DNA from: Synechocystis sp. PCC 6803 substr. PCC-P
GTDB taxonomy: Bacteria > Cyanobacteriota > Cyanobacteriia > Cyanobacteriales > Microcystaceae
Direction: 5' to 3'
Length of the DNA: 32,000 bases
NCBI RefSeq assembly: GCF_000284455.1
Contig: NC_017039.1
Coordinates: 3,480,001-3,512,000 of the forward strand
A program made the translations under genes and the position numbers. Shown one piece after another: positions 116-28,958 of this stretch. A model generated the notes under the pieces. It did not search any database and was not told the DNA's origin. It saw nothing but the letters and a program-made list of their open reading frames with translations. Every line of letters starts with the position of its first letter. The stretch's first letter is position 1.

Positions 116-1234
116 TTAATCTAAAGAAATCCAATGACCATTTAGCCTTTGCACAATTGCTGTTGCCTCTTCATAACTTTTAGCGATCGCCCAAGTATGG
201 TGGGTTTTGCCATTACTTTCCCGCAGATAAATTTGATTGGGTAACAGGGGATGGTCAGCGGTGGTACGGAGATAATCTTTGTTCAATTTGCTATGGAATT
301 GGGAATAGATGGACGTATCCCAGGGTATTCCCCGGTCCCAACCCGGCACCACCAAAGGATTAGCTCCCAATAAAATTTGGCACGGCACTAACATGGGGCC
401 TTTATAAATAGCATAGGCGATCGGCATACAGGTATTAATTGCTAAGGTGACTAATTCACCATATTTATGCATTAATGATTGTTGCCAATATTGGGTAATT
501 AAGGTGAAATCTAACCCCGCACTTCCCCTAGTATCTAAGAGTTTATTGAACTTTTCATATTCCGTTCGCACAGTGGTGATTTCCCGTTGCCAAGCATATT
601 CCAATGGACTTTGACCAAAAACTATCTTGCCTGCTTTGAGTAATTTCCATTTTTCACCAATTTTTAAAACGTCCAATTTTGCCGGTGCTTGTAGAGTAAA
701 TTGATAATTCTTCCCTGGGTTTTCATTAGTTGCTTTAAATAGTTTGGCGAAGCTAGCCAGGGAACTAAAATGGCTAAAGGATTCGGGACGAGGAAATAGA
801 TAAAATCCTTGGTTTTTGAGTTGCATTACCCAAAAGTTACCAACATTATTTTTTTCTAGAACATCTTCTTGGTCAATTAACAGAGAAACCCGCTGACAAT
901 AAACTTCTAATATTTGGGGAGTTTCGTGATAAATGTCAATAATTTTACTGATGGGTAAATCTAATAGAGGAGGGGGTTGTTCAACTATTAAATGGGGATA
1001 GGCATCGGCGGGAAAGGCAGTGGGTCGGCTAACTACAGTCTCAATTTGACTGATTTTTTGTTTAAGGACTTCTATTTCTTTGATTAAGTCAGCATTACTC
1101 TGGGTCTGAACTTCATTATTTTTTTGTGCTTGAAAAAATCGTAGGGCCGCAAACTCCTGTTGTAACTTAAGTTGATTTTTTTCCAACTGAATCAGCTTAG
1201 CTTGATTTAATTTATCCGGTTGATTGCCAGCCAT
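116..1234 (-). CDS. Hypothetical soluble coiled-coil protein and last gene of the tubulin-like/actin-like operon. It carries the shared ~75-aa adaptor domain (aa ~130-208) and a unique ~165-aa C-terminal domain.
   Basis: 372-aa ORF with ATG start, 32 nt downstream of the preceding same-strand gene. The N-terminus is heptad-like and Q/K/E/L-rich (QAKLIQLEKNQLKLQQEFAAL ... LIKEIEVLKQKISQIE) with no TM segment. The motif FYLFP...APAKL...EKWKLLKAGKI aligns to the C-termini of the two upstream genes. HIP1 at 183-190. Confidence 0.7.
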   Translation of the reverse strand: MAGNQPDKLNQAKLIQLEKNQLKLQQEFAALRFFQAQKNNEVQTQSNADLIKEIEVLKQKISQIETVVSRPTAFPADAYPHLIVEQPPPLLDLPISKIIDIYHETPQILEVYCQRVSLLIDQEDVLEKNNVGNFWVMQLKNQGFYLFPRPESFSHFSSLASFAKLFKATNENPGKNYQFTLQAPAKLDVLKIGEKWKLLKAGKIVFGQSPLEYAWQREITTVRTEYEKFNKLLDTRGSAGLDFTLITQYWQQSLMHKYGELVTLAINTCMPIAYAIYKGPMLVPCQILLGANPLVVPGWDRGIPWDTSIYSQFHSKLNKDYLRTTADHPLLPNQIYLRESNGKTHHTWAIAKSYEEATAIVQRLNGHWISLD

Positions 1235-1266
1235 GTTGTTTAATTTATCTCTTACTGTTAATGATT

Positions 1267-2472
1267 TTAATTAAACACGCCTTTTTCGACTATTTGCCAA
1301 CGGCGATCGCCGACTAGGAGAAGTTTAGCGGGCTTGACTAGGTTAGGGTTTTGTAAATTGCCATAGCTGTCAAAAAAGGAACTGTTAGTCAGTAGTCTTT
1401 GCCAGCGGCTGAGCATTAGATTCGGAATTAACCAAATTTCTTCCCCAATGGTAAAGGCCAAATAGGAAGCTTGGCTCCTTTCTCCTTCTTCAAATTCCTG
1501 GCGATCGCCAAGACTAAGATTGCCTGCCTTGCCATGGATAACACTTTCTGTGGGCTTAAGGTATTGGAACTGGGATTGATCATCAAAAAAATTCTTATTG
1601 CCCTGGTTAAAATTAGTGATGCAATATTCTAAGCTGAGGCCAAAAGATTGGGTTGATTTTTCGGTATTTTCTACTTCTACTAAGGCATCTATAGCTTGTT
1701 CTTCATTGCTTATTGCATGGCCTTTGGCATCGATACAATTATTTTCTAAAAAATAATTATAAACATCTGCCTCGATAATCGAATCTGGTGTATTCGGTTG
1801 ATTTTCACCTGGTAAAACAATATCAGTTTGGGTAACATTAATAACTTTGCGTTTTGCACCCCTAGTAAGCCTAGAAGCGGTAATTTTTTTTAAAGTTTTG
1901 CTTCCCATTTGTTGGAGAGATTTATTTTTACTAGGCTTAGTTGAAAAAGCATTCAACAAGTCAACTGCCAACTTGCCGACGACGATACTCAAACCTATGG
2001 TGCCAGCAATAAACAAATAAATCAGAATTATCAAGTCTTGGCTTTTCTGAACACCAATTTCAGTGGTGGTTTCTGCCCTACCCGAATTTACTGTGGGGGT
2101 TGGCGTCGGCGCAATGGTTGGACTGGTCGACTCGTCTGGATAGTAAGGGGTATTATTAACTTGACTTTCCTTTGTTCGTAAACCAATCCAGCCCCTTTCA
2201 TCTACAGAAAAAGTGACAATTTTATACCAGCAAAAACCGTCATAAAATTTGGCATAGATGTCAGACAAAGCAAATCTTCTGCCAGCGGGAATTTCGGCAA
2301 TAATTTCACCATTAATATTGGGAATATCGTAAACGTCCAAATTAAAATCAGAAAATGACATCTGATAATCCCTCATTGCTGGACAAGGATTATTTTGCTG
2401 AGCATAAACTGGACTAATGCTCCGAATTATTACAACAATAAAAACAATTGCAAAATTTCTCAGTCTATTCAT
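1267..2472 (-). CDS. Bitopic membrane protein: signal peptide, bacterial SH3 (SH3b)-like periplasmic domain, P/T-rich linker, TM helix, basic cytoplasmic segment and the shared ~75-aa C-terminal adaptor domain.
   Basis: ATG at 2472 gives MNRLRNFAIVFIVVIIRSISPVYA/QQ (signal-peptide-like) and lies 8 nt after the upstream stop. The longest ORF start (2520) would overlap the upstream gene by 40 nt. SH3b-like segment: LDVYDIPNINGEIIAEIPAGRRFALSD...FCWYKIVTFSVDERGWIGL. Linker: PTIAPTPTPTV. TM: LIILIYLFIAGTIGLSIVVGKLAV, followed by a K/R-rich stretch (positive-inside). C-terminus: IWLIPN...KPAKLLLVGDRRWQIVEKGVF. Confidence 0.72.
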   Translation of the reverse strand: MNRLRNFAIVFIVVIIRSISPVYAQQNNPCPAMRDYQMSFSDFNLDVYDIPNINGEIIAEIPAGRRFALSDIYAKFYDGFCWYKIVTFSVDERGWIGLRTKESQVNNTPYYPDESTSPTIAPTPTPTVNSGRAETTTEIGVQKSQDLIILIYLFIAGTIGLSIVVGKLAVDLLNAFSTKPSKNKSLQQMGSKTLKKITASRLTRGAKRKVINVTQTDIVLPGENQPNTPDSIIEADVYNYFLENNCIDAKGHAISNEEQAIDALVEVENTEKSTQSFGLSLEYCITNFNQGNKNFFDDQSQFQYLKPTESVIHGKAGNLSLGDRQEFEEGERSQASYLAFTIGEEIWLIPNLMLSRWQRLLTNSSFFDSYGNLQNPNLVKPAKLLLVGDRRWQIVEKGVFN

Positions 2473-2480
2473 AAATTCAT

Positions 2481-3287
2481 TTATTTGTCGCCAAAACTCC
2501 CTTTTGAAGTTAGCTTCCAATGATTTTCTTTAATTAACTCTAAATGAGCAGGAAACTTGAGTTCAAATCTATCTGATACGGCATTCATTTCAAATATTCT
2601 ACTATCATTATTTAGTTTAATTAATCTTGATATTTTCGGCATGGTAGCATTGGGAATTAAGTAGAACTGATTATTGAATTGAAAAATAAGGTAAATAGCA
2701 TTGGCTTTATCTGAAATTGACTTAAACTCTATAATTGGTTCCCCATCAATAGCTCGTCTATTGTCTTTAGATTCTTCTGTTAGCTCAACAGGAATAAAGT
2801 TAGGATGATTGAAATAATCGACATTTAGTTGTGCGTACTGCTCAAGAATAATTTTTACTTGATCAATTTGTTCTTTTTGTTGCTCTATTTCCCCTACTTG
2901 AAGTTCATTTACATTAAAGCTTTTTGGCCGATTGTCGTGGTATCGATTGACTGAATTTAAATAATTTAACTGACTGCTCAGGTCGGCTACCTTTGTGTGT
3001 AAAGTAATATTTTTTTCTTTATATTTTTGAATTTGATTACTTAATACATTTAGTTGTTGTTGCACTTGATTGATATCGGAAGTATTCAAAAGTATTTTTT
3101 TTCCTTGTGTTTCTACGGTTTCACTGATTTTTTTGACTTTTCTGAAGTCTGATGAAAATCCACGCATTTTTTTGTTATTTAAAATACTAATAGCAATACT
3201 AACCATTGAAAATATGAAGGCAAGTATTGAAGCGGTAATGGAGATTGATATCCACGACTGTTCTGATATAAGTTTAAAAAATTCCAT
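2481..3287 (-). CDS. N-terminally TM-anchored coiled-coil protein with the shared ~75-aa C-terminal adaptor domain.
   Basis: 268-aa ORF, 49 nt downstream of the 1072-aa gene. TM: WISISITASILAFIFSMVSIAISIL, followed by NNKKMRGFSSDFRKVKK (cytoplasmic side). About 120 aa are heptad-rich (QQQLNVLSNQIQKYKEKNITLHTKVADLSSQLNYL). C-terminus: FYLIPN...KFPAHLELIKENHWKLTSKGSF. Very AT-rich with no HIP1. Confidence 0.72.
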   Translation of the reverse strand: MEFFKLISEQSWISISITASILAFIFSMVSIAISILNNKKMRGFSSDFRKVKKISETVETQGKKILLNTSDINQVQQQLNVLSNQIQKYKEKNITLHTKVADLSSQLNYLNSVNRYHDNRPKSFNVNELQVGEIEQQKEQIDQVKIILEQYAQLNVDYFNHPNFIPVELTEESKDNRRAIDGEPIIEFKSISDKANAIYLIFQFNNQFYLIPNATMPKISRLIKLNNDSRIFEMNAVSDRFELKFPAHLELIKENHWKLTSKGSFGDK

Positions 3288-3336
3288 GAGTTTGATTTTT
3301 TACCTAATTTAAATTCTATGAGACTATCAATTATAT

Positions 3337-6300
3337 TTAAGATTTAGACCACTTATCTGCAATTAAATCAATAAAACATTTAAGTACGATTAAAAAAGTT
3401 GGCTCTGCTTCAAATTCAGATACTGGGCCATGTTTCCGAAGACAAGCTTTCTTAATACGAGATTTCAAAATTACTTGATCGTCATTGCTCAACTGATAAA
3501 GTCCAGATCCATCAAAATTTCTCAATATATCAACTTCATTTATTCCTAATTCTTTGACTGTCTGATTAAAATTTTTAATATAATTTTCTAATTGGGAAAA
3601 AGACGCAATTTCAAACTGATTTATTTCTTCCCACTCATCATCAGTTTGTAATAAATCTTCAGATCCATAATCCTTACCATTGATTGTGCAAGACTCCCCT
3701 AGAAAAGGATAAGTTTTCTGGTTAGTTGCAATGCCCTGAAGCTTTTCTCCATCTTCTGGAACAACTAACCCTCCACACACTTCTTCTTTGGGATATTCAG
3801 ATAGCGTAGAAACCTCTGGATTGTATGATAGCCCAGATGCTTTTGTTAAAAGTCCCTGAAAAAGAATATTTACTTCCGATGATTCTGAAAATTCACCTGT
3901 TGGAGTTAGCCAATGTAGAAATCGAGAACCATTGCCACCAAAGAGAAAAGTAGTTGCTATTCCATCCGTGAAATGCTTATTTTGTACGTGTAGTATTCTT
4001 TGGATTAGTCCAACATAGTGAAATAGACCTCCGACAGCAAAACTAATTAGCGTTCTGAATTCACGATTTCTCCGCTTGTCGCAGTTGATAGCATAACCTT
4101 CCGATAAAATTCTTTCTGCATTACTTCTCATATAAGTATCAAGGGCAGAATCAAAGTTATTACCACTTAATACTTTCGCAACATTACGAGCAGCTTCTGG
4201 CGGCAAACCAAAAATTTCATCAGTAAAATTAAGATTACTTTCTAAAATGCGGTGAAAGATATTTCTTCCAGCAAATGGCACCGAAACTTGATGTATTAAA
4301 TTGTTATCTTGCCAAATTGAAATATCTGATGTGCCGCCTCCAATATCAATACAAGTTGTGTTAATGAGATTCTTTTTGAGAATATCGGCAAAAAATTGTG
4401 CAAAAGCAACGCTTTCAGTTCTTAGTCCTCTGTCATCTACGATGTGATTTTGTCCACTGACTAAATTCAACTGGTCTAGTACACGCTTCCAAGTAATCTG
4501 GTAACGATTGAGATCCATCGTGGAAAAAGCAGATGGATAAGAAATGGACCATTTTACTTCTCGAACTTCTTGCCATGCCGCTTGGGCAGCAATCATGCGT
4601 GCCAGTTGTGATAAAAATGGACGCTGATGCTGTACTTTTTCCCATTTAATGTTTGTTTTAATAAACTCTTTATTGAGTTCATATTTATCGAGCCGAGGAA
4701 AATATATTCGACCATCTACCACAAGCTCTGGAATATCTCCATCTATTTCTTGCCATCCCCTGGTGGTTAGCATTGCTAGCATGGGAGGATTATTACCTTC
4801 CGGTAAAAGCAGATCAGGAATGAAAAATTCTCGATAAATTACTGTTTGAATATCTTCCAAACTGTGGGTGATTTTCAGCAAATTAGTTTGGAGTTGCAAC
4901 CTTTCTGGAGTACCGCTAGAGCCTTTCCGCACGTAAACATTGGTAAATGACGTGCCGAAATCTAATCCCACCGTCCAAGTGGTGGCATTTCCGCCCTGGG
5001 CTTTGGGTATCCGCAGAGGAATAAGACCAAGCGGCTGGGCATTTTTATCAATCGCCAGGAGGACATCGGGGTAGGCATCACATTTCCAGTACTGATAACT
5101 TTCCTGACCCGATCGTCGATTTTCCGCTTGGGCATTGGGAGTGGGCTGATCCACCCGAAAAGCTAACTCACCATACTCTTCCGTGGTTTCCACTAGCAAG
5201 AAATATTCTTTCCATAAACTGGGAGGCACATTGGGCCAAAGCGCCAAGGTGGGAAAATCCTGCTTAATTTCATTTTCCGCCTTGAGGGGATATTCCTGGG
5301 ACATTGTATAGGCCACAGGCCGCTCAAATCCTGATATTTGCACCGTCAGCGAAATCCGTACCCCCGGGCCTTCAGGAGTGGAAACCGGGGCTAACTCCAC
5401 CTGTTTTTCCAAATCTTCACTGCTGAAATATTCCCGCAGAAAGGGCTTAAAGGGTAACAGAATGGTCAGATTATCCAGATTTAGCTTTTGGTCTAACCAA
5501 GTGCCCGGTAACAAACCCTTTGTTTTGTGGAAATAAAGATTATCTTGGAAAATATCCGCCGGGGTAGCAAAAATGGCATCGGAACGCCGGTGAAGATTAG
5601 GATCAAAATTGAGCAGAGGGGACGCGTCAATAACATTAATTTCCTGGGGTTGTTTACCTAACAGTCCTGGTAGTTGTACTGGATCAAGAATATAAAGTTG
5701 CTTACTGGGATTGCGACTGGCTGAAGCAATTACCCTCACATTGGAAGGATTTTGTACCGCCTCCGCTGGATATAAAGCATTCAACGGAGGTGGAGCTAAA
5801 GGAATACCAAACGGTAAATTTTTTGTAGTAGGTTGAAAGACATTACTGGTGGTGACCCCCAAATCTTGGATATAGTCGTCAATCATCCCCGAAACCCGTC
5901 CCGCCAAATCCTCATTTTGGGGATTACGCATCAAATTACCCTTCAAATTTTCCAACCAAGGCAACAACACCTCCTTTTGATTGGGAGCCAAACCATTGCC
6001 AATGGGATTAGTGAAAAAGCCATTTTTTATCCACGCAATACGGCGACTTAAATGCTCAGGAAAATAACCCGTGGGGCAAACAATGGTGGCCGGACTAGTC
6101 ATACCGATCGCCACGCCGTCCAGTTCAAACAAATACAACTCCGCCCAGGGACCATCGGGGGGAACCATGGCCAACACATTATCTTTATCGTTGGGGCGCA
6201 ATTTCCAAAGACAGCGGGCAAATTCCTTATCTTGATAATCCTTGAGCCGCACCTGGGTGGCAGTGATCTTAAGATTTAAATTTTCCGCCAGGGCTAAAGC

Positions 6301-6555
6301 CGTTAATAAACCTCGATATTGCTCAATTAACCAATCCCGACTGGGGTATTGTCGGTTGCGAAAAGCCGAAATTAATTGCAACGGCCGAGACCAAGGACTA
6401 GGGATAGAATTTACTTCCCGGTAGGCTCCTGCTTCAAACTCCAAACTATTACCCAAGCGGTTAAACAATCCCACTCCCTCGGCGATCCATTCCCCTGGAG
6501 CAGCGCCACCAGCAAAATCTTGATTAGTTTTGGGAAGTAGGGGTTGGTTAGTCAT
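3337..6555 (-). CDS. Large (1072 aa) two-part protein: an unrecognised ~525-aa N-terminal region plus a C-terminal actin/Hsp70/sugar-kinase-fold (ASKHA) ATPase domain.
   Basis: Uninterrupted 3.2-kb ORF. Phosphate-1 motif TWTVGLDFGTSFTNVY is encoded at 4933-4980. Phosphate-2 motif TCIDIGGGTSDISIW is at 4312-4356. The adenosine-like motif FLFGGNGSRFLHWL is at ~3905-3960. Order and spacing are as in Hsp70/ParM/MreB-type folds. I recognise nothing in the N-terminal half. Confidence 0.85.
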   Translation of the reverse strand: MTNQPLLPKTNQDFAGGAAPGEWIAEGVGLFNRLGNSLEFEAGAYREVNSIPSPWSRPLQLISAFRNRQYPSRDWLIEQYRGLLTALALAENLNLKITATQVRLKDYQDKEFARCLWKLRPNDKDNVLAMVPPDGPWAELYLFELDGVAIGMTSPATIVCPTGYFPEHLSRRIAWIKNGFFTNPIGNGLAPNQKEVLLPWLENLKGNLMRNPQNEDLAGRVSGMIDDYIQDLGVTTSNVFQPTTKNLPFGIPLAPPPLNALYPAEAVQNPSNVRVIASASRNPSKQLYILDPVQLPGLLGKQPQEINVIDASPLLNFDPNLHRRSDAIFATPADIFQDNLYFHKTKGLLPGTWLDQKLNLDNLTILLPFKPFLREYFSSEDLEKQVELAPVSTPEGPGVRISLTVQISGFERPVAYTMSQEYPLKAENEIKQDFPTLALWPNVPPSLWKEYFLLVETTEEYGELAFRVDQPTPNAQAENRRSGQESYQYWKCDAYPDVLLAIDKNAQPLGLIPLRIPKAQGGNATTWTVGLDFGTSFTNVYVRKGSSGTPERLQLQTNLLKITHSLEDIQTVIYREFFIPDLLLPEGNNPPMLAMLTTRGWQEIDGDIPELVVDGRIYFPRLDKYELNKEFIKTNIKWEKVQHQRPFLSQLARMIAAQAAWQEVREVKWSISYPSAFSTMDLNRYQITWKRVLDQLNLVSGQNHIVDDRGLRTESVAFAQFFADILKKNLINTTCIDIGGGTSDISIWQDNNLIHQVSVPFAGRNIFHRILESNLNFTDEIFGLPPEAARNVAKVLSGNNFDSALDTYMRSNAERILSEGYAINCDKRRNREFRTLISFAVGGLFHYVGLIQRILHVQNKHFTDGIATTFLFGGNGSRFLHWLTPTGEFSESSEVNILFQGLLTKASGLSYNPEVSTLSEYPKEEVCGGLVVPEDGEKLQGIATNQKTYPFLGESCTINGKDYGSEDLLQTDDEWEEINQFEIASFSQLENYIKNFNQTVKELGINEVDILRNFDGSGLYQLSNDDQVILKSRIKKACLRKHGPVSEFEAEPTFLIVLKCFIDLIADKWSKS

Positions 6556-6657
6556 GGTTAGTCAGGCAATTAAAAATAAAGCTGGGGGAAGGGAAAAATA
6601 GGGTGCAATTAGCCTAGGTCAAAAAGCTGATTCACAGTTAAATGAACGTAAAGCGGA

Positions 6658-8145
6658 CTAAAGTAAATCAAACAGGGCATGGGCTAAGCCAAAAACGCCT
6701 TTATCATAACTTTTGCCCTCATCTGCTAAACGGTTCTTGATTGTGTCCAGGCGATCGCCACTTTGCGCCGCTTGACTTTTCTCCTTATCAATAATTAATT
6801 GGTGGAGATGTTCACGATAACCGGGGTTTTGTTTCAGATCGTCCAAATGTTTGAGCTGAAAAAGTTGCTCGCCATTGACATGGGCAGAGGAAACCTGTTG
6901 GGCCCATTGCAAAAACTTCTTGGCCCAGGCTGTGAGTAGATCATTTTTGGCCACTTCCTGGGCATTGTCCACCAGGGGTTTATCCTCTTCCCCTGCCCTA
7001 AGAGCAAAAAAGTGTTGGAACCAAGGAGCACCCTTCGCAAACTTTTTACCTCCCAACTTCCGGGCCGCTTCCAACTCCAAGGAAAAGTTATAGAACCAAG
7101 CGTAGGCAAAGCGCACTCCCTTACTGAGGGCTAATTTAGCGATTTCGTCATCCGGCAAGTCCGTCCAAATCAGACTATTGATATCCCCCCGACTGATGTA
7201 GTGGGCCACCGTTTCCCCCATGGGTTGATCGAAACCATGGTTAGCGGCCAGGGCGGCGTACAGTTCGACAAAATGGGCCCCATTTTCCTGATTTTTGCCC
7301 CCAGTGTGGGAATCATACCTAGTTTGGGCATTGTCCCCAATCAAGTACACACTATCAAAACAGCCTTGGGACTGCTCCGTTAAGTATTGCAATGCCGCTT
7401 GGGTATTGAGGGCAAAAAAGCGAGTTTCGGCAAACACCGTTTGATCGCCGTCGTCAGGACGTTCAAAGGCAAAGTACGGTAACAACAAAGATGCGTGAAT
7501 ACGAACTCGAAGATTGTCCTGTTTTAACTGATTACTAATTAGTTTAGCCAGGGTAGGAACCCCGGAAGCTCCTGTTCCCCCAAAGATACTGCCAAAGAAA
7601 TGCACCACCACATCATTGCCCCGACCTACCCCTAAATCCGTGGTTAGATTATTAAATAGCTGTTGCCATCCCCCAGCCTGGGTTTGCTGGAGACTATCCA
7701 GTTCTAAACGACTCATCACCGCTGAACCGATGGGAGGCCGGCCCCGAAACCCCACTCCTAGATCGGCAGTTTGTTCCGCTGGACTGTAAAGGGCATCAAA
7801 TAATTTTGCTAAGGGAGGAGCACTGGCCCGCAAAGCTTGTTTGTTAAAAACCCCTGCTAAGTTGTTGTTATGAACTTGGTCCCCCAGGGGATTCCAGGTG
7901 CCGTAGTGGAAAAATTGTCCACTCATTAAGGGGCTTTTCCCTTGGCCAAAAGCTTTTTGGGCATCGTCGGTGGTACGGAAGTTGACCCCAGTTCTTTGAG
8001 AGTTGCCGTTAGAGGTATCTGCATCGACCAATAAAATTCTTAGTTCGGAGTTGTCGCCGTACAGCCCCAGGGAATGGAGAAAAATGGCCGCTTCCACGCA
8101 TTTAGCTCCACTGCCCCCCACACCGATGGCATAAATTTTTTGCAT
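6658..8145 (-). CDS. Divergent tubulin/FtsZ-superfamily GTPase (Tubulin_2 / FtsZ-like-type).
   Basis: 495-aa ORF. Motifs appear in canonical order: T1 IGVGGSGAK (aa 7-15, nt 8101-8127); T3-like GVGFRGRPPIGSA (aa ~130-142); T4 tubulin signature FGGTGASG (aa 188-195, nt ~7561-7584); then LLLPYF and YLIGDNAQ (aa ~267-274, compare tubulin xDNEA / FtsZ xPN). The ATG is 10 nt after the upstream stop, with a purine tract GGAGGTTAGAGG just upstream. HIP1 at 6751. Confidence 0.82.
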   Translation of the reverse strand: MQKIYAIGVGGSGAKCVEAAIFLHSLGLYGDNSELRILLVDADTSNGNSQRTGVNFRTTDDAQKAFGQGKSPLMSGQFFHYGTWNPLGDQVHNNNLAGVFNKQALRASAPPLAKLFDALYSPAEQTADLGVGFRGRPPIGSAVMSRLELDSLQQTQAGGWQQLFNNLTTDLGVGRGNDVVVHFFGSIFGGTGASGVPTLAKLISNQLKQDNLRVRIHASLLLPYFAFERPDDGDQTVFAETRFFALNTQAALQYLTEQSQGCFDSVYLIGDNAQTRYDSHTGGKNQENGAHFVELYAALAANHGFDQPMGETVAHYISRGDINSLIWTDLPDDEIAKLALSKGVRFAYAWFYNFSLELEAARKLGGKKFAKGAPWFQHFFALRAGEEDKPLVDNAQEVAKNDLLTAWAKKFLQWAQQVSSAHVNGEQLFQLKHLDDLKQNPGYREHLHQLIIDKEKSQAAQSGDRLDTIKNRLADEGKSYDKGVFGLAHALFDLL

Positions 8146-8155
8146 GGCTTAACCT

Positions 8156-8659
8156 CTAACCTCCATAAATTTTGCGTAATAACATTGACCCCGGTGGCAC
8201 GTAGCGCATGGATTTGGGAGTGGCTAGGGCCGTGGGCAGCCAGAAAATTAACAAGACATCGACAATGATGAAGCCCAGTAGCCAGAAAAATGGTTCTAGG
8301 TTACGGCTGTCATCAAACCAGCCGTTAAGGAAACTCAGACCCACTAGAGCCAACATGGTCACTACACCGAGGACAATGGCAAAAATCCACCAAAGACCGC
8401 CGGTGCTGAGCACGTCCTGGGCCTTGGTGAAGCCACTGCTGAGGGCTTTAGCAATCCAGAATAGGAGTAACAGCGCTCCCAATACATAAACCACGTAAAG
8501 GGTGGGGAATAAAATCTCTGCGGCCCATTTATCCAAGTTACCCCGGGATAAACTCAAAGGCAGTCCACTTCCCCCTAGCAACCATGGCTGTAACCCAAAA
8601 ATGACAATGGTGGCGATCGCTACTGTAACCACCAGGGCCACTATCTCCGTAATTTTCAT
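8156..8659 (-). CDS. Small integral membrane protein with 4 predicted TM helices.
   Basis: 167-aa ORF with four hydrophobic ~20-aa segments at aa ~5-23, 50-70, 88-110 and 122-145. It lies 57 nt downstream of the vWA gene and 10 nt upstream of the tubulin-like gene. HIP1 at 8613. Confidence 0.75.
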   Translation of the reverse strand: MKITEIVALVVTVAIATIVIFGLQPWLLGGSGLPLSLSRGNLDKWAAEILFPTLYVVYVLGALLLLFWIAKALSSGFTKAQDVLSTGGLWWIFAIVLGVVTMLALVGLSFLNGWFDDSRNLEPFFWLLGFIIVDVLLIFWLPTALATPKSMRYVPPGSMLLRKIYGG

Positions 8660-8716
8660 AACCCCTATCCTGCCGAACTAATACGTGAAGATTAGCAAAA
8701 ATTTTGATTAAGCAAT

Positions 8717-10126
8717 TTAATAGTGGCTATAGCCGAGACAAAACTTAACAGCATCTTGATTATTGGCCACCGCCCCCCGTAGTCCCGATACAAAAAGCAG
8801 TAAATTTTGGGTTCTGGCCCCGTCCGGGTTACTAATGTCCATATCCCAATCCCGCCACACTGCCTGATCCAATTGGCGATCGCCAAGGGTGACGTAAACT
8901 AATTTTCCTTGCCCCTGGGGTACCTGATTGCCATCAAAAACAGCGGTTAATAAAAGGCGGGCATTCTCTCCCCCGGGATTTTGAGCAATTTCTGCTTTTT
9001 TCACCGTCAAAAAGGGTTCAGACACATTGAAAAGATCTGGGGTTAGCTCTCCACCAGTGAGGGAAACGGTACTTTTAGAAGGAATATTTAACTCCAACGG
9101 TGGCAGAGGGCTAGCAGAATTTTCACCACAATTGGTTTGTTCGACCATAAGCCAATCCTTTTCCTGGTCTTGGTTTGGCCTCTGACGGTCTATGGAACCA
9201 ATGTCAATTACGCATTCTTGAATAGTGCCTTTTAAAGAACTGTTGTCTAGAGTCACCGTATCTGCTTGGCCAAGCTCAAAGGCGGAGGCCCGAAAGGCTT
9301 TATTGACATCTAAGGGAAGCTGACGGAATTCCCTTACCAATTCATCCACCGTTTCCTGGGGCCCCGTCATCAGGATAAAAAATGGTCTGCCCTTTTGATC
9401 CACGTCCTGGCCAGTGGTGTTGTAAACAAAAGTGGGATAACCAGCGTTGGCAGAATAAACATTGCCCCGGAACTGACTCCGAACTCCCAAGAGCACGGCT
9501 TTATAGTTGGGATTATTGTTTAACTCTTTGCTGATCAGGCCAGAAATTTGTCCCACAGCGGCATCGTCCGGTTCTAGGTCGGTGAGTAAAATTTTCAGAC
9601 TGCGGGTAGCACTGGTATTGGTGGAAGTGTTGCTATCCTCTTCACTCCCTTCATTTCTTTCCCCTTGATTATTAGATGTGCCGGCGGCCGGGCTTTCCAA
9701 TTCATAAAGTTGCCCCAAAGTACTGGAAACACAAGGATAATCCGCTATTGGCTGATCCCGACGACAATAAAAGGGCGCTTTACTGGCGGCCAGAAATTGG
9801 TTAGCAGAAATCGGTTGGGCCTGACTAATATTTTCATTGCTCCCCACCCGCCAATAGGAAGTGGGCAAATTTTTGTTTTGCAAAAGGGTGTGCAAAGAGG
9901 CGATCGCCTGGCCATAGCGACCACCAGGTTGACTGACAAAACCCACCATGGACTCACTGGCATCTACCCCCACCATTACATCCAGGTTTTCAAAAGGCCC
10001 AGGGGAAGATTGTTCGTCTCTGCGCTCTACCATCCCTTGGTCTGTTTCCACACAGGGTAAACCTCCCCTCTGGCCACAACCGGCTAATACTAGAGCCAAC
10101 AAAGAGAACAAAATCCAGCTTTTCAC
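8717..10126 (-). CDS. von Willebrand factor A (vWA) domain lipoprotein and first gene of the operon.
   Basis: The N-terminus MKSWILFSLLALVLAGCGQ is a signal peptide with lipobox L-A-G-C. MIDAS DxSxS motif VGVDASESM is at nt 9948-9977. The downstream KILLTDLEPDD matches the vWA 'LLTDG' strand. 469 aa. HIP1 at 8876 and 9900. Confidence 0.85.
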   Translation of the reverse strand: MKSWILFSLLALVLAGCGQRGGLPCVETDQGMVERRDEQSSPGPFENLDVMVGVDASESMVGFVSQPGGRYGQAIASLHTLLQNKNLPTSYWRVGSNENISQAQPISANQFLAASKAPFYCRRDQPIADYPCVSSTLGQLYELESPAAGTSNNQGERNEGSEEDSNTSTNTSATRSLKILLTDLEPDDAAVGQISGLISKELNNNPNYKAVLLGVRSQFRGNVYSANAGYPTFVYNTTGQDVDQKGRPFFILMTGPQETVDELVREFRQLPLDVNKAFRASAFELGQADTVTLDNSSLKGTIQECVIDIGSIDRQRPNQDQEKDWLMVEQTNCGENSASPLPPLELNIPSKSTVSLTGGELTPDLFNVSEPFLTVKKAEIAQNPGGENARLLLTAVFDGNQVPQGQGKLVYVTLGDRQLDQAVWRDWDMDISNPDGARTQNLLLFVSGLRGAVANNQDAVKFCLGYSHY

Positions 10127-10516: not shown

Positions 10517-13500
10517 TTGCCTAAATCTGTGAAAACCCTAGCCTACGCTAACCCTGCTGATCTATTCGCCTTTCCCTTGGATGACTTCCAACAAGAGGCG
10601 ATCGCCGCCCTGGACCAAGACCAGTCAGTGGTAGTGTGTGCCCCCACAGGTTCCGGTAAAACGGTAGTCGGAGAATATGCCATCTATCGAGCCATTGCCA
10701 GGGGAAAAAGGGTTTTTTATACTACGCCTTTGAAGGCCTTGTCCAATCAAAAAATTCGGGATTTCCAGGAAAAATTAGAGAAGTTAGGCCTAGAAAATGC
10801 GGCCCAACTAGTGGGCTTAATTACCGGTGATACGGTGATCAATGCCGATGCCCCGGTGGTGGTAATGACCACGGAAATTTTTAGGAATATGCTCTACGAA
10901 ACCCCCATTGGGGAAGTAGGCACTTCTTTGGAGGACGTGGAAACAGTGGTGTTTGACGAAGTCCATTACATCAGCGACCGGGGTCGGGGCACTGTGTGGG
11001 AAGAGTCAATCATTTATTGTCCCAGCACCATTCAACTGGTGGGTTTGTCCGCCACCATTGGCAACCCGGAACAGTTGACCGAATGGATTAATCAAGTCCG
11101 CACTGGGGTTTCCCTGAAAGTATTACGCCAGGGAGAGCAACGTAATGATTCCCCCCCCTGTGTGCTGGTCAATTCCGATTTCCGTCCTGTGCCCCTCACC
11201 TTTCACTACAGCACCCGCAAAGGTTTATTTCCCCTGTTGAATGAGAAAAAAACGGGAGTTAATACTCGCCTATTGCCCAAGGCTGGGAATAAAAATACCC
11301 GTTCTGGTAAAAATCGCCGCATGCGCCGGGAGGATTGTCCCTATCCCCTGTTGGTGATGCAACAGCTACAGGAACGGAATTTGTTGCCGGTAATCTATGT
11401 AATTTTTAGTCGGCGGGGCTGTGAACAGGCGGCCCAATCCCTGGAAGATTTATCTTTGGTGGAACCGGCGGAGCAGGAAAGTATCCAACTGCAACTACTG
11501 GATTTTTTCTTTGGCAAAAATCCCCTACTGCGGCAGAAGTTGGAACGGGATTTGGCCAATGGTTTGCCGGATTTAGTCCAAGCGGTCGTTGCCTATTTGG
11601 ATCATCCCCAGGACAGTGAAGCGGCCCAAAGACTTTTGACTGCGTTGGCGATCGATCCAGAAGGTATGTTCAAACTCTGGGGTTGGATTGCCCAATCTTC
11701 TCCCATGACTAGGTTCGAGCAGATTGAACCCCTTTTACGGGGCATTGCGGTGCACCACGCCGGCATTTTGCCAGATATGAAAACCCTGGTGGAAAAGTTA
11801 TTTGAGCAGGGCTTGATCAAAGTGGTATTTGCCACAGCCACCCTCTCGGCGGGGATTAATATGCCTGCTCGCACCACGGTGATTTCTGCCCTATCCAAAC
11901 GTACCAATGAAGGTCATGCCATGCTCAGTCCTTCGGAATTTTTACAAATTGCGGGGCGGGCTGGGCGGCGGGGTATGGATACGGAGGGCCATGTAATTAC
12001 GGTGCAAACTCCCTTTGAAGGGGCCAATGAGGCCTCTTACTTAGCTCTAGCGGAGGCGGAACCGTTAAAAAGTTGGTTTACCCCTTCCTATGGCATGGTG
12101 CTGAATCTGTTGCAAAAACATGATTTGGAAGAAGTAAAAAGTTTGCTGGAACGGAGCTTTGCCGAATACTTGGCCCAGTTTGCCCTGGAACCCACTAAGG
12201 TGGCGATCGCCGAAACGGTGAAAAAATTATCCCAATTGGATATTAAGTTGGCAGGCATTGGGGAAAAGGATTTACGCAGTTACGAAAAATTCCGGGGGCG
12301 ACTGCGGGAAGAACAAAGGTTGCTGAAAATTCTGGAAGAACAGGCGGAAAAAGAACGAAAGCAACAGTTAAAGGATCAACTCAAAACCCTGGCACCGGGT
12401 CAGCTTTTATATCTCAAAGGTCGCCACGTCAAAATCCATCAACCTCGTTTAGCGGTCATTGTTGCCCCCCTGGCCCCCGCCCATAATTTGCCCCAATGGT
12501 GCTGCCTGGGCAGTGATAACCGTTGGTATCATGTCACTGTGGGGGATATTTATGCGGTGCCCATTGGTAATCTGTCCCCAGCCCAATGGCAGCATTTAAC
12601 CCCGCCCCCAGCGGAACTTTTGGCTCCCGGTAAATCGGTGAAGGGAGATGAGGAAACATTGGCGATCGCCGCAGGCCTAGACCCCCAAACCTATCCCTTA
12701 GAACCCAGCCCAGAACTGGTAGAACAACAGGCCAGGGTAGACCATGTGGAAAAACTGTTGGCAGTACATCCCCTGGCTAGCCAAAAACATCCCGGCAAAC
12801 TTTTGGAGCAGTTCCACCAACGGCAAGAACTACGTAAAACCCTAAGCAAACGACAACAGGAGTATGATCGCCTACAATCCCGTCAATCCTACTATTGGCA
12901 GGAGTTCCTAGACTTAATTGACATTTTGCAGGAAATGGAAGCCCTGGAGGAATATACCCCCACACTGTTGGGGGAAGTGGCCGCCACCCTGAGGGGGGAA
13001 AATGAATTGTGGTTGGGTTTGGCCCTGATTTCCGGCAAATTCAACGATTTGGAACCAGAACAGTTGGCCGCCGCCGCCAGTGCCCTCATTACGGAAACTC
13101 CCCGTTCCGATGCTTGGACTGATTTCAAGCCTTCCCCTGTAGTGTTGGCCGCTCTCCGTCCCAGTAATGATTTGTTTGGCCTATTATTTTGCCTTAAACA
13201 CCCTCAACCTCCCCTTGCCCTCTGGCAGGCTATGACGGTGGCGGATCATTTGCAACGGCTTAATCTCTGGGATCTACGACGTAAATTGATCAAAGCTCAA
13301 AATCAACGGGCGATCGCCATTCCCCTTTGGTTGGAAGTGGATTTTATGGGCTTGGTGGAACAGTGGGCATTGGGCATGGAGTGGGAAAACCTCTGCCGCC
13401 AGACCAGTTTGGATGAGGGGGATTTAGTCCGACTTTTCCGGCGCACGGTGGATCTGCTTTGGCAAATTCCCCAGGTGCCCCACCTTTCCCCCCGACTAAA

Positions 13501-13549
13501 ACGGAATGCTCGCATTGCGGTGCAACAAATGAAGCGTTTTCCCCTCTAA
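10517..13549 (+). CDS. Ski2-like (HelY/Mtr4-type) DEAD/DEAH-box superfamily-2 RNA helicase with a DSHCT-like C-terminal domain.
   Basis: Motif I CAPTGSGKT, motif II VVFDEVHYISD, motif III SAT and motif VI QIAGRAGRRG are present. The C-terminus LVEQWALGMEWENLCRQTSLDEGDLVRLFRRTVDLLWQI is typical of DSHCT. There is no in-frame ATG near the 5' end, so the start is TTG 10517 or GTG 10529. Confidence 0.9.
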   Translation: MPKSVKTLAYANPADLFAFPLDDFQQEAIAALDQDQSVVVCAPTGSGKTVVGEYAIYRAIARGKRVFYTTPLKALSNQKIRDFQEKLEKLGLENAAQLVGLITGDTVINADAPVVVMTTEIFRNMLYETPIGEVGTSLEDVETVVFDEVHYISDRGRGTVWEESIIYCPSTIQLVGLSATIGNPEQLTEWINQVRTGVSLKVLRQGEQRNDSPPCVLVNSDFRPVPLTFHYSTRKGLFPLLNEKKTGVNTRLLPKAGNKNTRSGKNRRMRREDCPYPLLVMQQLQERNLLPVIYVIFSRRGCEQAAQSLEDLSLVEPAEQESIQLQLLDFFFGKNPLLRQKLERDLANGLPDLVQAVVAYLDHPQDSEAAQRLLTALAIDPEGMFKLWGWIAQSSPMTRFEQIEPLLRGIAVHHAGILPDMKTLVEKLFEQGLIKVVFATATLSAGINMPARTTVISALSKRTNEGHAMLSPSEFLQIAGRAGRRGMDTEGHVITVQTPFEGANEASYLALAEAEPLKSWFTPSYGMVLNLLQKHDLEEVKSLLERSFAEYLAQFALEPTKVAIAETVKKLSQLDIKLAGIGEKDLRSYEKFRGRLREEQRLLKILEEQAEKERKQQLKDQLKTLAPGQLLYLKGRHVKIHQPRLAVIVAPLAPAHNLPQWCCLGSDNRWYHVTVGDIYAVPIGNLSPAQWQHLTPPPAELLAPGKSVKGDEETLAIAAGLDPQTYPLEPSPELVEQQARVDHVEKLLAVHPLASQKHPGKLLEQFHQRQELRKTLSKRQQEYDRLQSRQSYYWQEFLDLIDILQEMEALEEYTPTLLGEVAATLRGENELWLGLALISGKFNDLEPEQLAAAASALITETPRSDAWTDFKPSPVVLAALRPSNDLFGLLFCLKHPQPPLALWQAMTVADHLQRLNLWDLRRKLIKAQNQRAIAIPLWLEVDFMGLVEQWALGMEWENLCRQTSLDEGDLVRLFRRTVDLLWQIPQVPHLSPRLKRNARIAVQQMKRFPL

Positions 13550-14032: not shown

Positions 14033-15340
14033 TTAAACTTTGGGTTTTAGCTTGATATTTAGTTTAGGGACAAAGCTTTTGATTAAAACTGATTCTATTT
14101 CCTGCAGATAATGTTTAGGTAGCGAAGTTATGAAAGCAATTTTGCCATCTTCTATTAAGTCAAAATCAGATTGTCTGTGATGAGAATACCAACGCTTTTG
14201 AAGGTTGACTGACATTCCAATATATTGAATTGCATCATCTTTGTTGAGGACAAAATAAATTCCAGGCTGTTCTGGTAGTTCGTCCCTTTCTTCAATTGGT
14301 ACTGCTGACAATTTTGCGGGATTAATTTGAGTTATTTCCAAAAAAATTCCATCGTAAATGAATTTTGAAATATATTCAATAAAGGAAAGGAATAAAAAAT
14401 CAGAGCTATTCCAGGAATTTAATTCTTCTGGTAATTCTGAATCTAAAGGATCAAATTCCTGACCATCGAGGACACACATAAAAGAAGCGATTATGTTTTC
14501 CCATTCATAAACATATTTTTTAGATTTATAGCGGTTCTGCCATTTATCTAGCCAATTTTGTGCATCATTCCAAGCTTCTGGATAATACCATTCTTGCCAT
14601 AATTGTTTTAGTTTATTCGCCGTCGGTGGTTTTGGTGGATCGCAATATTCGCGGTCGTAAATATTTTTCCATGCTTTCCTAAATATTGAGTATATTTCAC
14701 TAGGTAACTCTGGGATTTCAAATTCTTTTTGCTGATAGCTTTGGATTTCTGGATCAATATCAATATATTTAGTGATTTCGTTGGATTCGTTGTTTTGACC
14801 CATCTTCATCTCTACTTGTGTCAATCCAGATTCTAATAAAGGAATAAAGTTGCTAGTTTCTAAAAATTCTCCATCAATAACTTCATCATTTATTTCTTCT
14901 TCTTTGGGTGTGTTAAGCAAAAGTGACAACTGTAATCCCAGCGCCCCAGAAATCCATTCTCTACCCGGAAACAACAAGTCAACTTGATATTTGTCTTCCA
15001 AAAGTAAACTAAAATTACCCTTAATTGAGTTGAGGTAATATTTTTTGACTTCAGATATTATTTCTTCGTAAAATTGTGACAAGATTTTAACTTCATTTGC
15101 CGCTTTTCCTTTGGTGTGTAAATAAGGCTTAACAACTACACTACCATGCTCACTTAAGGGATCTAGTTCCTCTGTTATCCACTCCTTAACATCTTCAATA
15201 TCAAGGGAGCCTAATCCTTTATTTTCTCGACGTAAAAGTTCTGTCTCTATTGCTTTTCGGCAAATATCAGACCAATTTGCGTCTACCTTTGCCATTCGAC
15301 TTTTTAAATCATCGGTCACATAAACATTGAGTGCAGGCAT
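14033..15340 (-). CDS. GIY-YIG nuclease-domain protein with an RHH/antitoxin-like N-terminus and a ~300-aa unknown middle region, encoded on an AT-rich island.
   Basis: C-terminus: PGIYFVLNKDDAIQYIGMSVNLQKRWYSHH...LQEIESVLIKSFVPKLN. This gives GIY-x10-YIG plus the conserved R, H, E and N in canonical order (nt ~14033-14290). N-terminus from ATG 15340: MPALNVYVTDDLKSRMAKVDANWSDICRKAIETELL, which is ribbon-helix-helix-like. The longest ORF start at 15421 adds 27 non-descript aa. Hand-counted GC is 18-33% per 60 nt, against ~55% in adjacent ilvD. No HIP1. Confidence 0.8.
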   Translation of the reverse strand: MPALNVYVTDDLKSRMAKVDANWSDICRKAIETELLRRENKGLGSLDIEDVKEWITEELDPLSEHGSVVVKPYLHTKGKAANEVKILSQFYEEIISEVKKYYLNSIKGNFSLLLEDKYQVDLLFPGREWISGALGLQLSLLLNTPKEEEINDEVIDGEFLETSNFIPLLESGLTQVEMKMGQNNESNEITKYIDIDPEIQSYQQKEFEIPELPSEIYSIFRKAWKNIYDREYCDPPKPPTANKLKQLWQEWYYPEAWNDAQNWLDKWQNRYKSKKYVYEWENIIASFMCVLDGQEFDPLDSELPEELNSWNSSDFLFLSFIEYISKFIYDGIFLEITQINPAKLSAVPIEERDELPEQPGIYFVLNKDDAIQYIGMSVNLQKRWYSHHRQSDFDLIEDGKIAFITSLPKHYLQEIESVLIKSFVPKLNIKLKPKV

Positions 15341-15546
15341 GGTTAAACCATAAGTAGAAGTATAAAGAAGATTATACGCATATTCTCTGGGTGCGACAAC
15401 CAAAATTATGCGCACATGCAATTATTCTTTACAAAACTTAGGTTCTATCTCCCTAAGTTGACTTTTTGTGGCCAGGCTTGAGCAAAGGGGAATAAACCAT
15501 CGACAATGGACAGAAGCATAGATTCGCTACGAGACAGGAGAGAACA

Positions 15547-28224: not shown

Positions 28225-28932
28225 GCAGAGTAACCGAGAACCTAACCAGTCTCCGGAAACTTGAGGGTGATGTGGCCAATCAGGTAAATTACACCAAGTC
28301 TTAAAACGATATCGCTCTTCTATCATTGTGGGTAGGATAAGATGGAGAAGATAGTCTGAAATGCAGAGGTGGTATATGGTTGCCCCACGTGAAGCAAAAG
28401 AAACAGTACAATTCATTGACAAATACTGCGAAGGATACAGAGACTTATTTTATTTCCAAAAGTGAGAAGCTTTGAATACTTTAAATACTTGCATCTAGGA
28501 TTAATTGCGAATATAAAGAGAAAAACCTTCCCAGAAATAGCTAAGGTAGTAGGACTAGAAAATGGACAAGGATTTGACTATTTCTTCGGTAACAGCCCTT
28601 GGTCGTTAGAGGAGGTAAGGGAAAGAAGAATTAATAAAATTCTGAGTTTTGCGGAAGGAGAAGCAATAACAATGCTCATAGACGAAACAGGGGATAGGAA
28701 AAAAGGAAGAAAGACAGATTATGTTGCGCGTCAGTATATTGGCAATCTAGGAAAAATAGAAAATGGAATAGTAGAGGTGATGTGTTATGGAATTATAAAG
28801 GGAATGACAGTACCATTAATCAGCAAAGTATATAAACCAGAGACAAGACTAAAAGAGGGGGATAAATACAAAAGTAAACCAGAGATAGTAGGGGAAATTA
28901 TCAAAGAAATAAAAGAGCTTGGTTTCAATATA

Positions 28933-28956
28933 TAGTAGTTTAAAATAAAGCTGAGA
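28933..28956. repeat. ISY100 terminal inverted repeat (stop-codon side of the transposase gene).
   Basis: TAGTAGTTTAAAATAAAGCTGAGA matches 18/24 positions against the reverse complement of 29856-29879. Confidence 0.7.
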
Positions 28957-28958
28957 CG

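Follow-up and report, generated by a model that had tools for sequence, protein, structure and literature searches.

The genome of Synechocystis sp. PCC 6803 substr. PCC-P contains a gene, here called Tub, whose product carries sequence motifs resembling the GTP-binding loops of tubulin and FtsZ. Two questions arise from it: does the protein belong to the tubulin/FtsZ superfamily, and what does it do among the genes with which it is found? The gene lies in a stretch of 32,000 nucleotides (NCBI RefSeq assembly GCF_000284455.1, contig NC_017039.1, positions 3,480,001 to 3,512,000 of the forward strand), which as a whole is referred to as the window; all positions below are counted from its first nucleotide. 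Tub is the third gene of a co-directional row of seven on the minus strand (116..10126), in the order A, B, Tub, D, E, F and G. The reading developed here, whose chances as a whole we consider to be even, is that Tub is a tubulin-type GTPase that forms an obligate pair with D, a protein with an Hsp70/actin fold, and that this pair serves in biological conflict.

Superfamily assignment and domain structure of Tub

An earlier sequence-only reading had proposed a highly divergent tubulin/FtsZ-like GTPase at this position without naming the strand; nor did it mention the operon, the Hsp70/actin-fold partner or the contrast in architecture with the FtsZl1 proteins of 900–1100 aa. The open reading frame (ORF) is borne out, on the minus strand, and its translation reproduces each of the motifs quoted in that reading at the residues given there (Table 1). 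For conservation, 136 full-length sequences were used, each representing a cluster at 50% identity, and residues are called invariant from an alignment of 25 sequences that are 40–76% identical. The glycine-rich GG[STA]G of the T1 loop is found near the N-terminus of 134 of the representatives, the T3-like pattern G..G.P..G in 129 and the T4 signature in 126. T1 and T4 are separated by 181 residues, in agreement with the ~180 estimated previously, and the median spacing in the family is 174 residues (range 161–205). The T3-like loop, which follows a family-specific insertion, aligns with GGANGIRPIG in a canonical Tubulin_2 protein; in the predicted structure more helices follow the insertion, up to strand S4 at residue 179. 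From its place in the model VDAD appears to be a T2-like loop, which we take to be the counterpart of the 'NTD' of FtsZ. A further motif missing from the earlier list, LLPYFAF, resembles the T5 loop PFxFEG of FtsZ. One comparison did not survive: YLIGDNAQ had been likened to the DNEA of tubulin, and because its D and N vary within the 25-sequence alignment it should not be read as a T6/DNEA equivalent.

The family is large. A word-indexed search returned 1238 homologues at E<=1e-3, and an exhaustive HMMER search with the 25-sequence profile returned 2164 clusters at 50% identity with E<=1e-3, 1056 of them with E<=1e-30. Most homologues among the 150 best listed are 480–520 aa long, and the nearest named relatives are those of Synechocystis CACIAM 05 (97% identity) and S. 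salina (95%). Judged from its sequence, the Tub gene is clearly real and under selection, and the conservation of its motifs is as expected for a working nucleotide pocket.

Profile searches give a result that is clearer for the family than for the single protein. Tub itself reaches 20.8 bits against Tubulin_2 (PF13809; E=2.6e-4), short of the curated cut-off of 27, and matches Tubulin (PF00091) with E=0.022, the latter match being limited to the T4 stretch. Tubulin_2 is matched by all 25 aligned family members (best 1.9e-7) and PF00091 by 6 of them. One member, P0133, which matches the family profile with E=6e-115, scores 45.9 bits against positions 2–322 of the 356 in Tubulin_2, above the cut-off. 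The Pfam comparison suggested in the sequence-only reading is thus positive at the level of the family. A member from S. elongatus is labelled 'Tubulin/FtsZ GTPase domain-containing' in UniRef, and one plasmid-borne member 'tubulin-like doman-containing protein' in RefSeq, so automatic annotation had already arrived at this fold.

An AlphaFold2 model of Tub built on the alignment (mean predicted local distance difference test score (pLDDT) 79.6, predicted template modelling score (pTM) 0.84) was compared with known structures using Foldseek. The top 50 matches in the PDB are without exception FtsZ, α/β-tubulin, CetZ or TubZ (E 1e-4 to 2e-3, probability 0.98–1.00), and no P-loop or other Rossmann NTPase is found among them. 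Phage tubulins and FtsZ-like proteins lead the matches in a library of viral predicted structures, with PhuZ at rank 14 (E 4e-2). Two features of the comparison tell against the assignment. The template modelling scores are low, at 0.19–0.29 when normalized to the query and 0.21–0.41 when normalized to the target (0.32–0.41 for FtsZ, CetZ and TubZ chains), and residues ~85–165, which include the T3-like motif, are modelled at low pLDDT (49–65). The alignments span ~270–310 columns and, given the low scores, the match to the tubulin/FtsZ fold is therefore confined to the GTPase core. Within that limit the structural comparison, which the sequence-only reading had also suggested, is positive.

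The alternative that Tub is not a homologue of tubulin and FtsZ, and that the glycine-rich motifs of some other Rossmann-like or P-loop NTPase mimic T1 and T4 by chance, would account for the low structural scores and the sub-threshold Pfam match of Tub itself. It would also agree with a search of all PDB sequences with the family profile, which returned nothing significant (the sole match is glutamate 5-kinase, E=1.3). An hhalign comparison of the family with a single sequence of E. coli FtsZ aligned T1 alone (probability 4%) and might be read in the same way; it is counted in neither direction because a single-sequence template is too weak. Chance mimicry is difficult to reconcile with a Tubulin_2 match in every aligned member, in one case over nearly the full model, or with structural matches that all belong to the tubulin superfamily, both in the PDB and at the head of the viral library. 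Furthermore, five motifs stand in the canonical order, and a Walker A motif is found in none of the seven operon proteins. Chance mimicry is accordingly regarded as very improbable, and the Pfam result at family level, the Foldseek matches and the order of the motifs support, with high confidence, the earlier placement of Tub in the tubulin/FtsZ superfamily.

The earlier statement that the C-terminal region is not recognizably the activation domain of FtsZ or tubulin also stands. The model is all-helical from about residue 333 (helices 333–364, 366–372, 374–378, 395–419, 432–438, 458–463, 466–479 and 483–494; pLDDT mostly 80–97), and neither FtsZ_C, Tubulin_C nor any other Pfam family matches this domain. 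Its invariant residues are W350, N353, E357, G372, P374, W375 and W414, and the domain is likely to offer a docking surface for D or B. Directly before it, the loop W327-x-D329-x-P331 is invariant in the 25-sequence alignment and represents a candidate acidic loop.

A T7 loop was not found in Tub and, with neither this loop nor the activation domain, GTP hydrolysis coupled to polymerization as in FtsZ is unsupported, which weakens the case for an assembling GTPase. Tub could be a non-polymerizing switch: a regulatory GTPase, monomeric or dimeric, that changes state with its nucleotide or, loaded with nucleotide, assists the Hsp70-like ATPase as a cofactor, the helical domain being there only to dock. 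The T6-H7 region is also unidentifiable in the FtsZl1 (Tubulin_2) proteins, in which filament formation is possibly absent (Makarova & Koonin, PMC2875224). The covalent fusions of Tub to D described below would likewise fit a 1:1 complex better than a homopolymer. Set against this, the GTP-binding loops of Tub are conserved as strictly as those of polymerizing relatives, and other divergent tubulins, TubZ and PhuZ, polymerize through atypical interfaces. A purely regulatory Tub is considered unlikely.

The partner protein D and the seven-gene operon

The gene that follows Tub encodes D, the C-terminal half of which is assigned to the Hsp70/actin fold by three lines of evidence. Pfam FtsA is matched by 21 of 22 members of the D family and MreB by 15 of 22; the family profile matches actin, FtsA and MreB chains in the PDB; and the model of D (pLDDT 83) matches the nucleotide-binding domains of Hsp70, BiP and DnaK, as well as MreB and ParM, with E 2e-7 to 4e-6 and target-normalized template modelling scores of up to 0.56. 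No structure match was reported for the N-terminal ~525 residues. The three nucleotide-binding motifs contain the invariant residues given in Table 1, and G740 and N875 are invariant in one of two alignments and at least 90% conserved in the other. D is thought of here as a probably ATP-competent ASKHA protein.

The association of Tub with D was assessed in 85 loci, 80 of them from species-representative genomes and 5 from contig look-ups. The species scan, run with peptide patterns over 185,579 species representatives, yielded 179 relatives; because the patterns came from cyanobacterial sequences, the true taxonomic range may be wider. Nearly all of the loci are cyanobacterial (Synechocystis, Snowella, Microcystis, Nostocales, Pleurocapsales, and marine and freshwater picocyanobacteria). 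Clustering of their ORFs recovers Tub in at least 79 loci, B and D in 77 each, A in 73 and the E/F/G family in 63, with Tub, B and D together in about 77. D lies downstream of Tub in 77 of the 85 loci, at a median distance of 42.5 nt, and in 61 of 70 loci the gap is no longer than 300 nt; the exceptions have an inserted Uma2-family gene or small ORFs. The Uma2-family gene, putatively restriction-endonuclease-like, sits exactly between Tub and D in six loci, including L004:11535-12098, L011:9519-10082 and L016:7226-7789. The identities of Tub and of D to the respective window proteins are correlated (r=0.94), and the same architecture surrounds a distant representative, P0266.

In at least two lineages, seen in two of the representatives, Tub and D form a single polypeptide, with Tub at the N-terminus and D beginning at about residue 507. 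These fusions, P0213 (1605 aa, D part E=7e-104) and P0166 (1341 aa, E=7e-86), are less than 50% identical to each other, and they provide Rosetta-stone evidence for joint action of the two NTPases in a single complex. P0040 joins a Ser/Thr kinase domain to Tub, and P0303 joins one to D. Orphan copies of Tub that lack A, B and D occur among housekeeping genes in Cyanobacteria bacterium RI_101 (L090:8001-9488) and at L015; they are 58% identical, and RI_101 has a complete cassette as well (L012). Taken together, an obligate partnership of Tub with D is very likely.

The remaining genes of the operon encode a lipoprotein (A), a predicted membrane protein (B) and three paralogues with transmembrane or coiled-coil-like regions (E, F and G). 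The stop codon of B lies 10 nt ahead of the ATG of Tub, and a GGAGG sequence is found within the last codons of B. A homologue of lipoprotein A is itself named 'lipoprotein' in its source, and the consensus of the A family contains VDGSGSM and TDLE. A vWA fold was suspected for A and tried without success: there is no Pfam VWA match in 21 members of the family and no Pfam match on the homologues, the A profile finds no match in the PDB, and hhalign finds none between A and the gene beside a canonical Tubulin_2 gene. As all four attempts at confirmation failed, A is not called a vWA protein.

E, F and G are paralogues that share a C-terminal domain of ~110 residues with the pattern G.YW...L.P...LF...PAKL...WQL..G, joined to variable N-termini with transmembrane helices or coiled-coil-like regions. 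The family contributes 133 ORFs in its 63 loci, usually one to four copies beside the core. Three gene orders recur, and they differ between lineages. Nostocales and Pleurocapsales show A< B> Tub> D> G> G> G>; Synechocystis, Snowella and S. elongatus share [G>] A> B> Tub> D> F/G>; and the picocyanobacterial order is A> B> Tub> D> (341-aa gene)> G<, often with ZorA-like> OmpA/MotB-like> after it.

NCBIfam, PADLOC and PHROGs gave no match for Tub, A, B, D, F or G, and only noise of a coiled-coil type for E. Scans of the window for promoter and terminator consensus sequences returned counts at or below those expected from shuffled sequence and are uninformative, and the window gave neither an Rfam match nor a tRNA.

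Table 1. Positions of Tub, its sequence motifs and domains, and the other genes of the operon
Feature	Position	Strand	Basis and remarks
Tub gene, very probable tubulin/FtsZ-superfamily GTPase, short Tubulin_2-like form	6658..8145	-	ATG-start ORF, 495 aa
Tub T1 loop IGVGGSGAK, aa 7-15	8101..8127	-	G8/G10/G11/G13/K15 invariant
Tub putative T2-like VDAD, aa 40-43, end of strand S2	8017..8028	-	D43 invariant; strand 33-40 in model
Tub start of family-specific, mostly helical insertion, aa 85-129	7759..7893	-	between S3 and T3-like loop; model secondary structure
Tub T3-like loop GVGFRGRPPIGSA, aa 130-142	7720..7758	-	V131-G135, P137, G140 invariant
Tub T4 signature FGGTGASG, aa 188-195	7561..7584	-	G189, G190, T191, G192, G195 invariant
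Tub T5-like LLPYFAF, aa 221-227	7465..7485	-	L221, L222, P223, Y224, F225, F227 invariant
Tub YLIGDNAQ, aa 267-274, strand S6 and next loop	7324..7347	-	only Y267, G270 invariant
Tub all-alpha C-terminal domain, aa 331-495, in place of the FtsZ/tubulin activation domain	6661..7155	-	AlphaFold2 model
Gene A, 469-aa lipoprotein, lipobox LAGC, DASES (DxSxS-type) motif	8717..10126	-	homologues in 73/85 loci
Gene B, 167 aa, four predicted transmembrane helices, basic C-terminal tail	8156..8659	-	homologue immediately upstream of Tub in 77/85 loci
Gene D, 1072 aa, C-terminal half Hsp70/actin-fold (ASKHA) ATPase	3337..6555	-	Pfam, PDB profile, model
D motif DFGTS, aa 532	4948-4962	-	D532 invariant
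D motif DIGGGTSD, aa 737	4324-4347	-	D737, G739, T742, D744 invariant
D motif GGNGSR, aa 873	3922-3939	-	G873, G874 invariant
Gene E, 268 aa, one transmembrane helix, coiled-coil-like middle, shared C-terminal domain	2481..3287	-	sequence comparison, transmembrane prediction
Gene F, 417 aa, two transmembrane helices, shared E/F/G C-terminal domain	1267..2520	-	sequence comparison, transmembrane prediction
Gene G, 372 aa, N-terminal coiled-coil-like region, shared E/F/G domain, extra C-terminal domain	116..1234	-	sequence comparison

Mobility and possible role of the cassette

Several features of the cassette bear on its role. It is carried on five cyanobacterial plasmids, among them a 47.5-kb mobilizable plasmid of Gloeothece PCC 7822 of which it occupies about one-fifth; some genomes contain two copies (RI_101, bin-0982 and samp_4340); and the S. 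elongatus Tub protein is found on only 4 contigs. The cassette is also mosaic. Between the window and S. salina, identity is 95% for Tub and 84–98% for residues 1–600 of D, and it falls to 50–66% for residues 600–1072 of D and 24% for E. More generally, gene E is only 24–27% identical between close strains whose Tub proteins are 86–95% identical. The guanine–cytosine (GC) content falls from ~0.47–0.50 to 0.31–0.39 below about position 4500, that is, in the 3' third of D (3337-4500) and in genes E–G (116-3287). The coincidence of this drop with the point at which similarity to S. salina breaks down suggests recombinational replacement of the distal module, made up of the 3' third of D and E–G. 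Such features suggest that the cassette is an accessory module that is mobile and diversifying.

Carriage on plasmids, together with the use of tubulin-fold and actin-fold NTPases in plasmid partition elsewhere, would be compatible with a DNA-segregation system of the TubZ/ParM kind that has been captured from a plasmid or other mobile element into the chromosome. The partners are of the wrong type for such a system, being a lipoprotein and transmembrane proteins, and neither a DNA-binding adaptor nor a centromere-like repeat partner is seen. Moreover, most copies are chromosomal and lie among housekeeping genes, and no record in the phage collection searched carries the Tub family or the cassette. 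A segregation function is therefore hardly credible.

In the preferred reading, a GTPase paired with D, the ~330 N-terminal residues of Tub would form a tubulin-type GTPase core with intact T1–T5 loops and a large helical insertion before T3, and the ~165 that follow an all-helical domain in place of the T7 loop and activation domain. Tub would be cytoplasmic and bind GTP through T1–T5, and binding could lead to self-association or a conformational switch at the membrane; lacking the T7 loop and activation domain, it would either assemble through a non-canonical interface or act as a switch. D may bind Tub as FtsA binds FtsZ, using ATP to remodel or propagate the assembly. The four-helix membrane protein B, presumably coupled to Tub in translation, is the probable inner-membrane anchor of the pair, and the extracytoplasmic lipoprotein A and the variable E, F and G proteins may couple the pair to an event at the envelope.

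The role that we consider most likely, and hold tentatively, is that of a conflict system, directed against phages or other invaders, which varies between strains and responds to a trigger at the envelope. Related operons combining tubulin-like, vWA and transmembrane proteins have been interpreted both as devices for membrane remodelling (PMC2875224) and as conflict systems (PMC7159879). In 16 loci the cassette is accompanied by a ZorA-like gene, and in 9 by one of the OmpA/MotB type; four different arrangements occur. The ZorA-like neighbours are matched by PADLOC ZorA models with E 1.8e-17, and one marine locus is situated between GmrSD/HsdR and ZorAB-like genes.

A number of observations weigh against a conflict role and the mechanism outlined for it. 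None of the ZorA, OmpA, IMS or amidase homologues is present in the window. The recurrent neighbours are related to the cell wall, namely ARC6-like IMS, Amidase_2, beta-lactamase-like and TM2 proteins. Among 149 flanking ORFs from 63 loci most are housekeeping and heterogeneous, with only scattered matches to defence genes, and this sample weakens the idea of a defence island. The searches of PADLOC and PHROGs described above yielded no meaningful match for the seven proteins, none of which is a recognizable nuclease, toxin or pore effector. The tethering by B and the sensing by A are pure inference, and no biochemical data on any member of the Tub family were found.

Several of these points would be met by a dispensable cytoskeletal device that remodels the envelope, peptidoglycan or vesicles, in which Tub and the actin-fold ATPase form membrane-bound filaments with no part in conflict. 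Two cytoskeletal folds within one operon, with transmembrane and lipoprotein partners, are what such a device would be expected to contain, and it is the role proposed for the vWA–FtsZl1 operons (PMC2875224). The housekeeping flanks, the lack of matches of the operon to defence libraries, and neighbours with ARC6-like IMS, Amidase_2, beta-lactamase-like hydrolase, TM2 and OmpA/MotB peptidoglycan-binding domains fit it equally. It accords poorly with the patchy, strain-level distribution seen in the species scan and in S. elongatus, the carriage on plasmids, the several copies in some genomes and the hypervariable, mosaic distal part, accessory features that would be unusual for a morphogenetic machine. 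Remodelling without a conflict role is a serious possibility, and on this evidence a rather doubtful one. At the level of individual loci, genes for a TM2-domain protein, a beta-lactamase-like serine hydrolase or Amidase_2, and an ARC6-like IMS protein lie within a few kb of the cassette on a plasmid of Picosynechococcus PCC 73109 (L093), at L001 and at L027–L029; this recurrence in several lineages hints at an extended cell-wall-related neighbourhood.

The conflict role can be taken a step further, to an undescribed envelope-triggered immune machine in which the membrane-anchored, nucleotide-driven assembly of Tub and the ATPase is itself the effector, the hypervariable E, F and G are sensors or specificity modules, and a proton-driven ZorAB-like stator provides input from the envelope in picocyanobacteria. 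This extension is speculative and, in our estimation, unlikely; if true, it would be the first system to use both cytoskeletal NTPase folds as a unit outside cell division. The operon, with its core of a tubulin-fold and an actin-fold NTPase, is well defined and apparently undescribed: no published description of the short Tub form or its operon was found in the literature, nor any experimental study of the Tubulin_2/FtsZl1 branch. FtsZl1/Tubulin_2 was predicted 16 years ago, and here is a compact form of 495 residues in tractable genera with a clearly defined set of partners; it occurs in Synechocystis, some S. elongatus genomes, Picosynechococcus plasmids and marine picocyanobacteria. The adjacency and fusion of Tub and D provide a testable hypothesis on the possible regulation of a tubulin-fold protein that has neither a T7 loop nor an activation domain. 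Should the pair assemble, it would constitute a new type of two-NTPase filament or scaffold and, should the operon protect against cyanophages, a new class of defence system in ecologically important phototrophs.

Outside the operon the window also carries ilvD, phosphoketolase, an RND pump, truB and htpG. Divergent from the operon is a gene for a Ski2/Hel308-like DEAD-box helicase of 1010 aa with a C-terminal DSHCT domain (10517-13549, plus strand), which gives PADLOC HamB-type matches with E 1e-34 and has no HamA-like partner adjacent. Between this helicase and ilvD, in a segment of low GC content (0.34), lies a 462-aa ORF with a C-terminal GIY-YIG nuclease domain (14033-15421, minus strand). 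It is possibly a mobile endonuclease gene, and looks like a strain-specific insertion because a mere ~130 nt separate the helicase from ilvD in CACIAM 05 (L086). An IS630-family transposase gene (28959-29807, minus strand) adjoins a truncated DDE_5 transposase fragment (28462-28935, plus strand) in a region of low GC content with strong flips in strand skew; 28462-29807 probably represents one insertion sequence that landed within or next to another, and it is followed by a truncated htpG at 30876-31961.

Comparison with known systems

TubZ and PhuZ are, like Tub, divergent tubulin-fold GTPases of accessory elements, and TubZ is among the PDB matches of the model, as phage tubulins are at the head of the viral library. 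The Tub cassette differs from them in its C-terminal domain and operon, and no TubR-like DNA-binding partner is seen. With Zorya the cassette shares the neighbouring ZorA-like (16 loci) and OmpA/MotB-like (9 loci) genes, a linkage that covers part of the family; the window contains no ZorA or ZorB homologue, and no effectors of the ZorC, ZorD or ZorE type were seen.

Conflict systems built around a DO-GTPase and GAP1-N2 have been described that contain either Tubulin_2-type proteins with helical C-terminal domains, together with vWA and transmembrane proteins, or HSP70-domain proteins (Kaur, Burroughs, Iyer & Aravind 2020, PMC7159879). These operons are read as the regulated assembly of cytoskeleton-like complexes near the membrane (PMC7159879). 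The tubulin and HSP70 themes occur there in separate operons, whereas the cyanobacterial cassette combines the two. Membership of the Tub operon in these systems was considered and rejected, as no Walker A motif is present in its seven proteins. Pfam and NCBIfam gave no GTPase match for a DO-GTPase among them, and neither GAP1 nor FNIII was detected, in the case of GAP1 without a dedicated profile search.

A further point of reference is the FtsZ–FtsA pair, in which, as in Tub–D, the gene for a tubulin-fold GTPase adjoins that for an actin-fold ATPase. The best matches of D in Pfam and among PDB sequences are FtsA, MreB and actin, and attachment to the membrane is expected in both cases. The gene order is reversed, ftsA preceding ftsZ. 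FtsZ proper has an FtsZ_C domain, a T7 loop of the form NxDxxD and a conserved C-terminal peptide; the first two were looked for in Tub and not found. D, at 1072 residues, has an N-terminal half of ~525 residues in addition and is closer in its fold to the nucleotide-binding domains of Hsp70. The cassette is accessory and not universal, and the likeness does not imply that the two pairings are homologous.

The closest relationship is with FtsZl1, the group represented in Pfam by Tubulin_2. FtsZl1 proteins were described as being ~1000 aa long, with inserts between T1 and T4 and no identifiable T6-H7, and their operons as encoding vWA proteins, kinases, a GTPase, and membrane and OmpA/MotB-like proteins (Makarova & Koonin, PMC2875224). 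Cyanobacterial members in that census, for example Ava_1848, MAE_58770 and alr2043, have 910–1127 residues, and no entry from Synechococcus or Synechocystis is listed in 2010 (PMC2875224 supplement). The Tub family, by comparison, is represented in S. elongatus, marine Synechococcus and Synechocystis.

A canonical, FtsZl1-type Tubulin_2 gene is present in Synechocystis CACIAM 05 (CP019225.1, L086:108-2393), the nearest of the complete genomes, in two fragments of 275 and 128 aa, with a 334-aa gene upstream. The fragments lie just past ilvD, a few kb from the orthologous cassette, at a place where the window has the phosphoketolase gene. In an hhalign alignment against this single sequence the Tub family is colinear with the fragment through T1, T2, T3 (GFRGRPPIG against GANGIRPIG) and T4, the match being weak (E 0.005, probability 7%).

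Tub and FtsZl1 differ in several respects. Tub, with 495 residues, is about half as long as the cyanobacterial FtsZl1 proteins. FtsZl1 has an extended coiled coil, whereas no long one is apparent in Tub by inspection or in the model, no coiled-coil predictor having been run. The invariant partner of Tub is a giant Hsp70/actin-fold ATPase, which does not occur in the FtsZl1 operons described, and FtsZl1 is adjacent to a vWA protein with a metal ion-dependent adhesion site (MIDAS), whereas the lipoprotein A upstream of Tub could not be shown to be one. The shared features are nevertheless extensive. Both groups have glycine-rich T1 and T4 loops, the 'G..RP.IG' variant of T3 and long family-specific inserts between T1 and T4; both lack an identifiable T6-H7 and T7 and the FtsZ/tubulin C-terminal domain, and end in a helical region. 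The operons of both encode exported or membrane proteins, to which some lineages add MotB/OmpA-type genes and Ser/Thr kinase fusions. The Tub family is thus best regarded as a short branch (~500 aa) within the Tubulin_2/FtsZl1 group, one that has its own architecture and its own operon.

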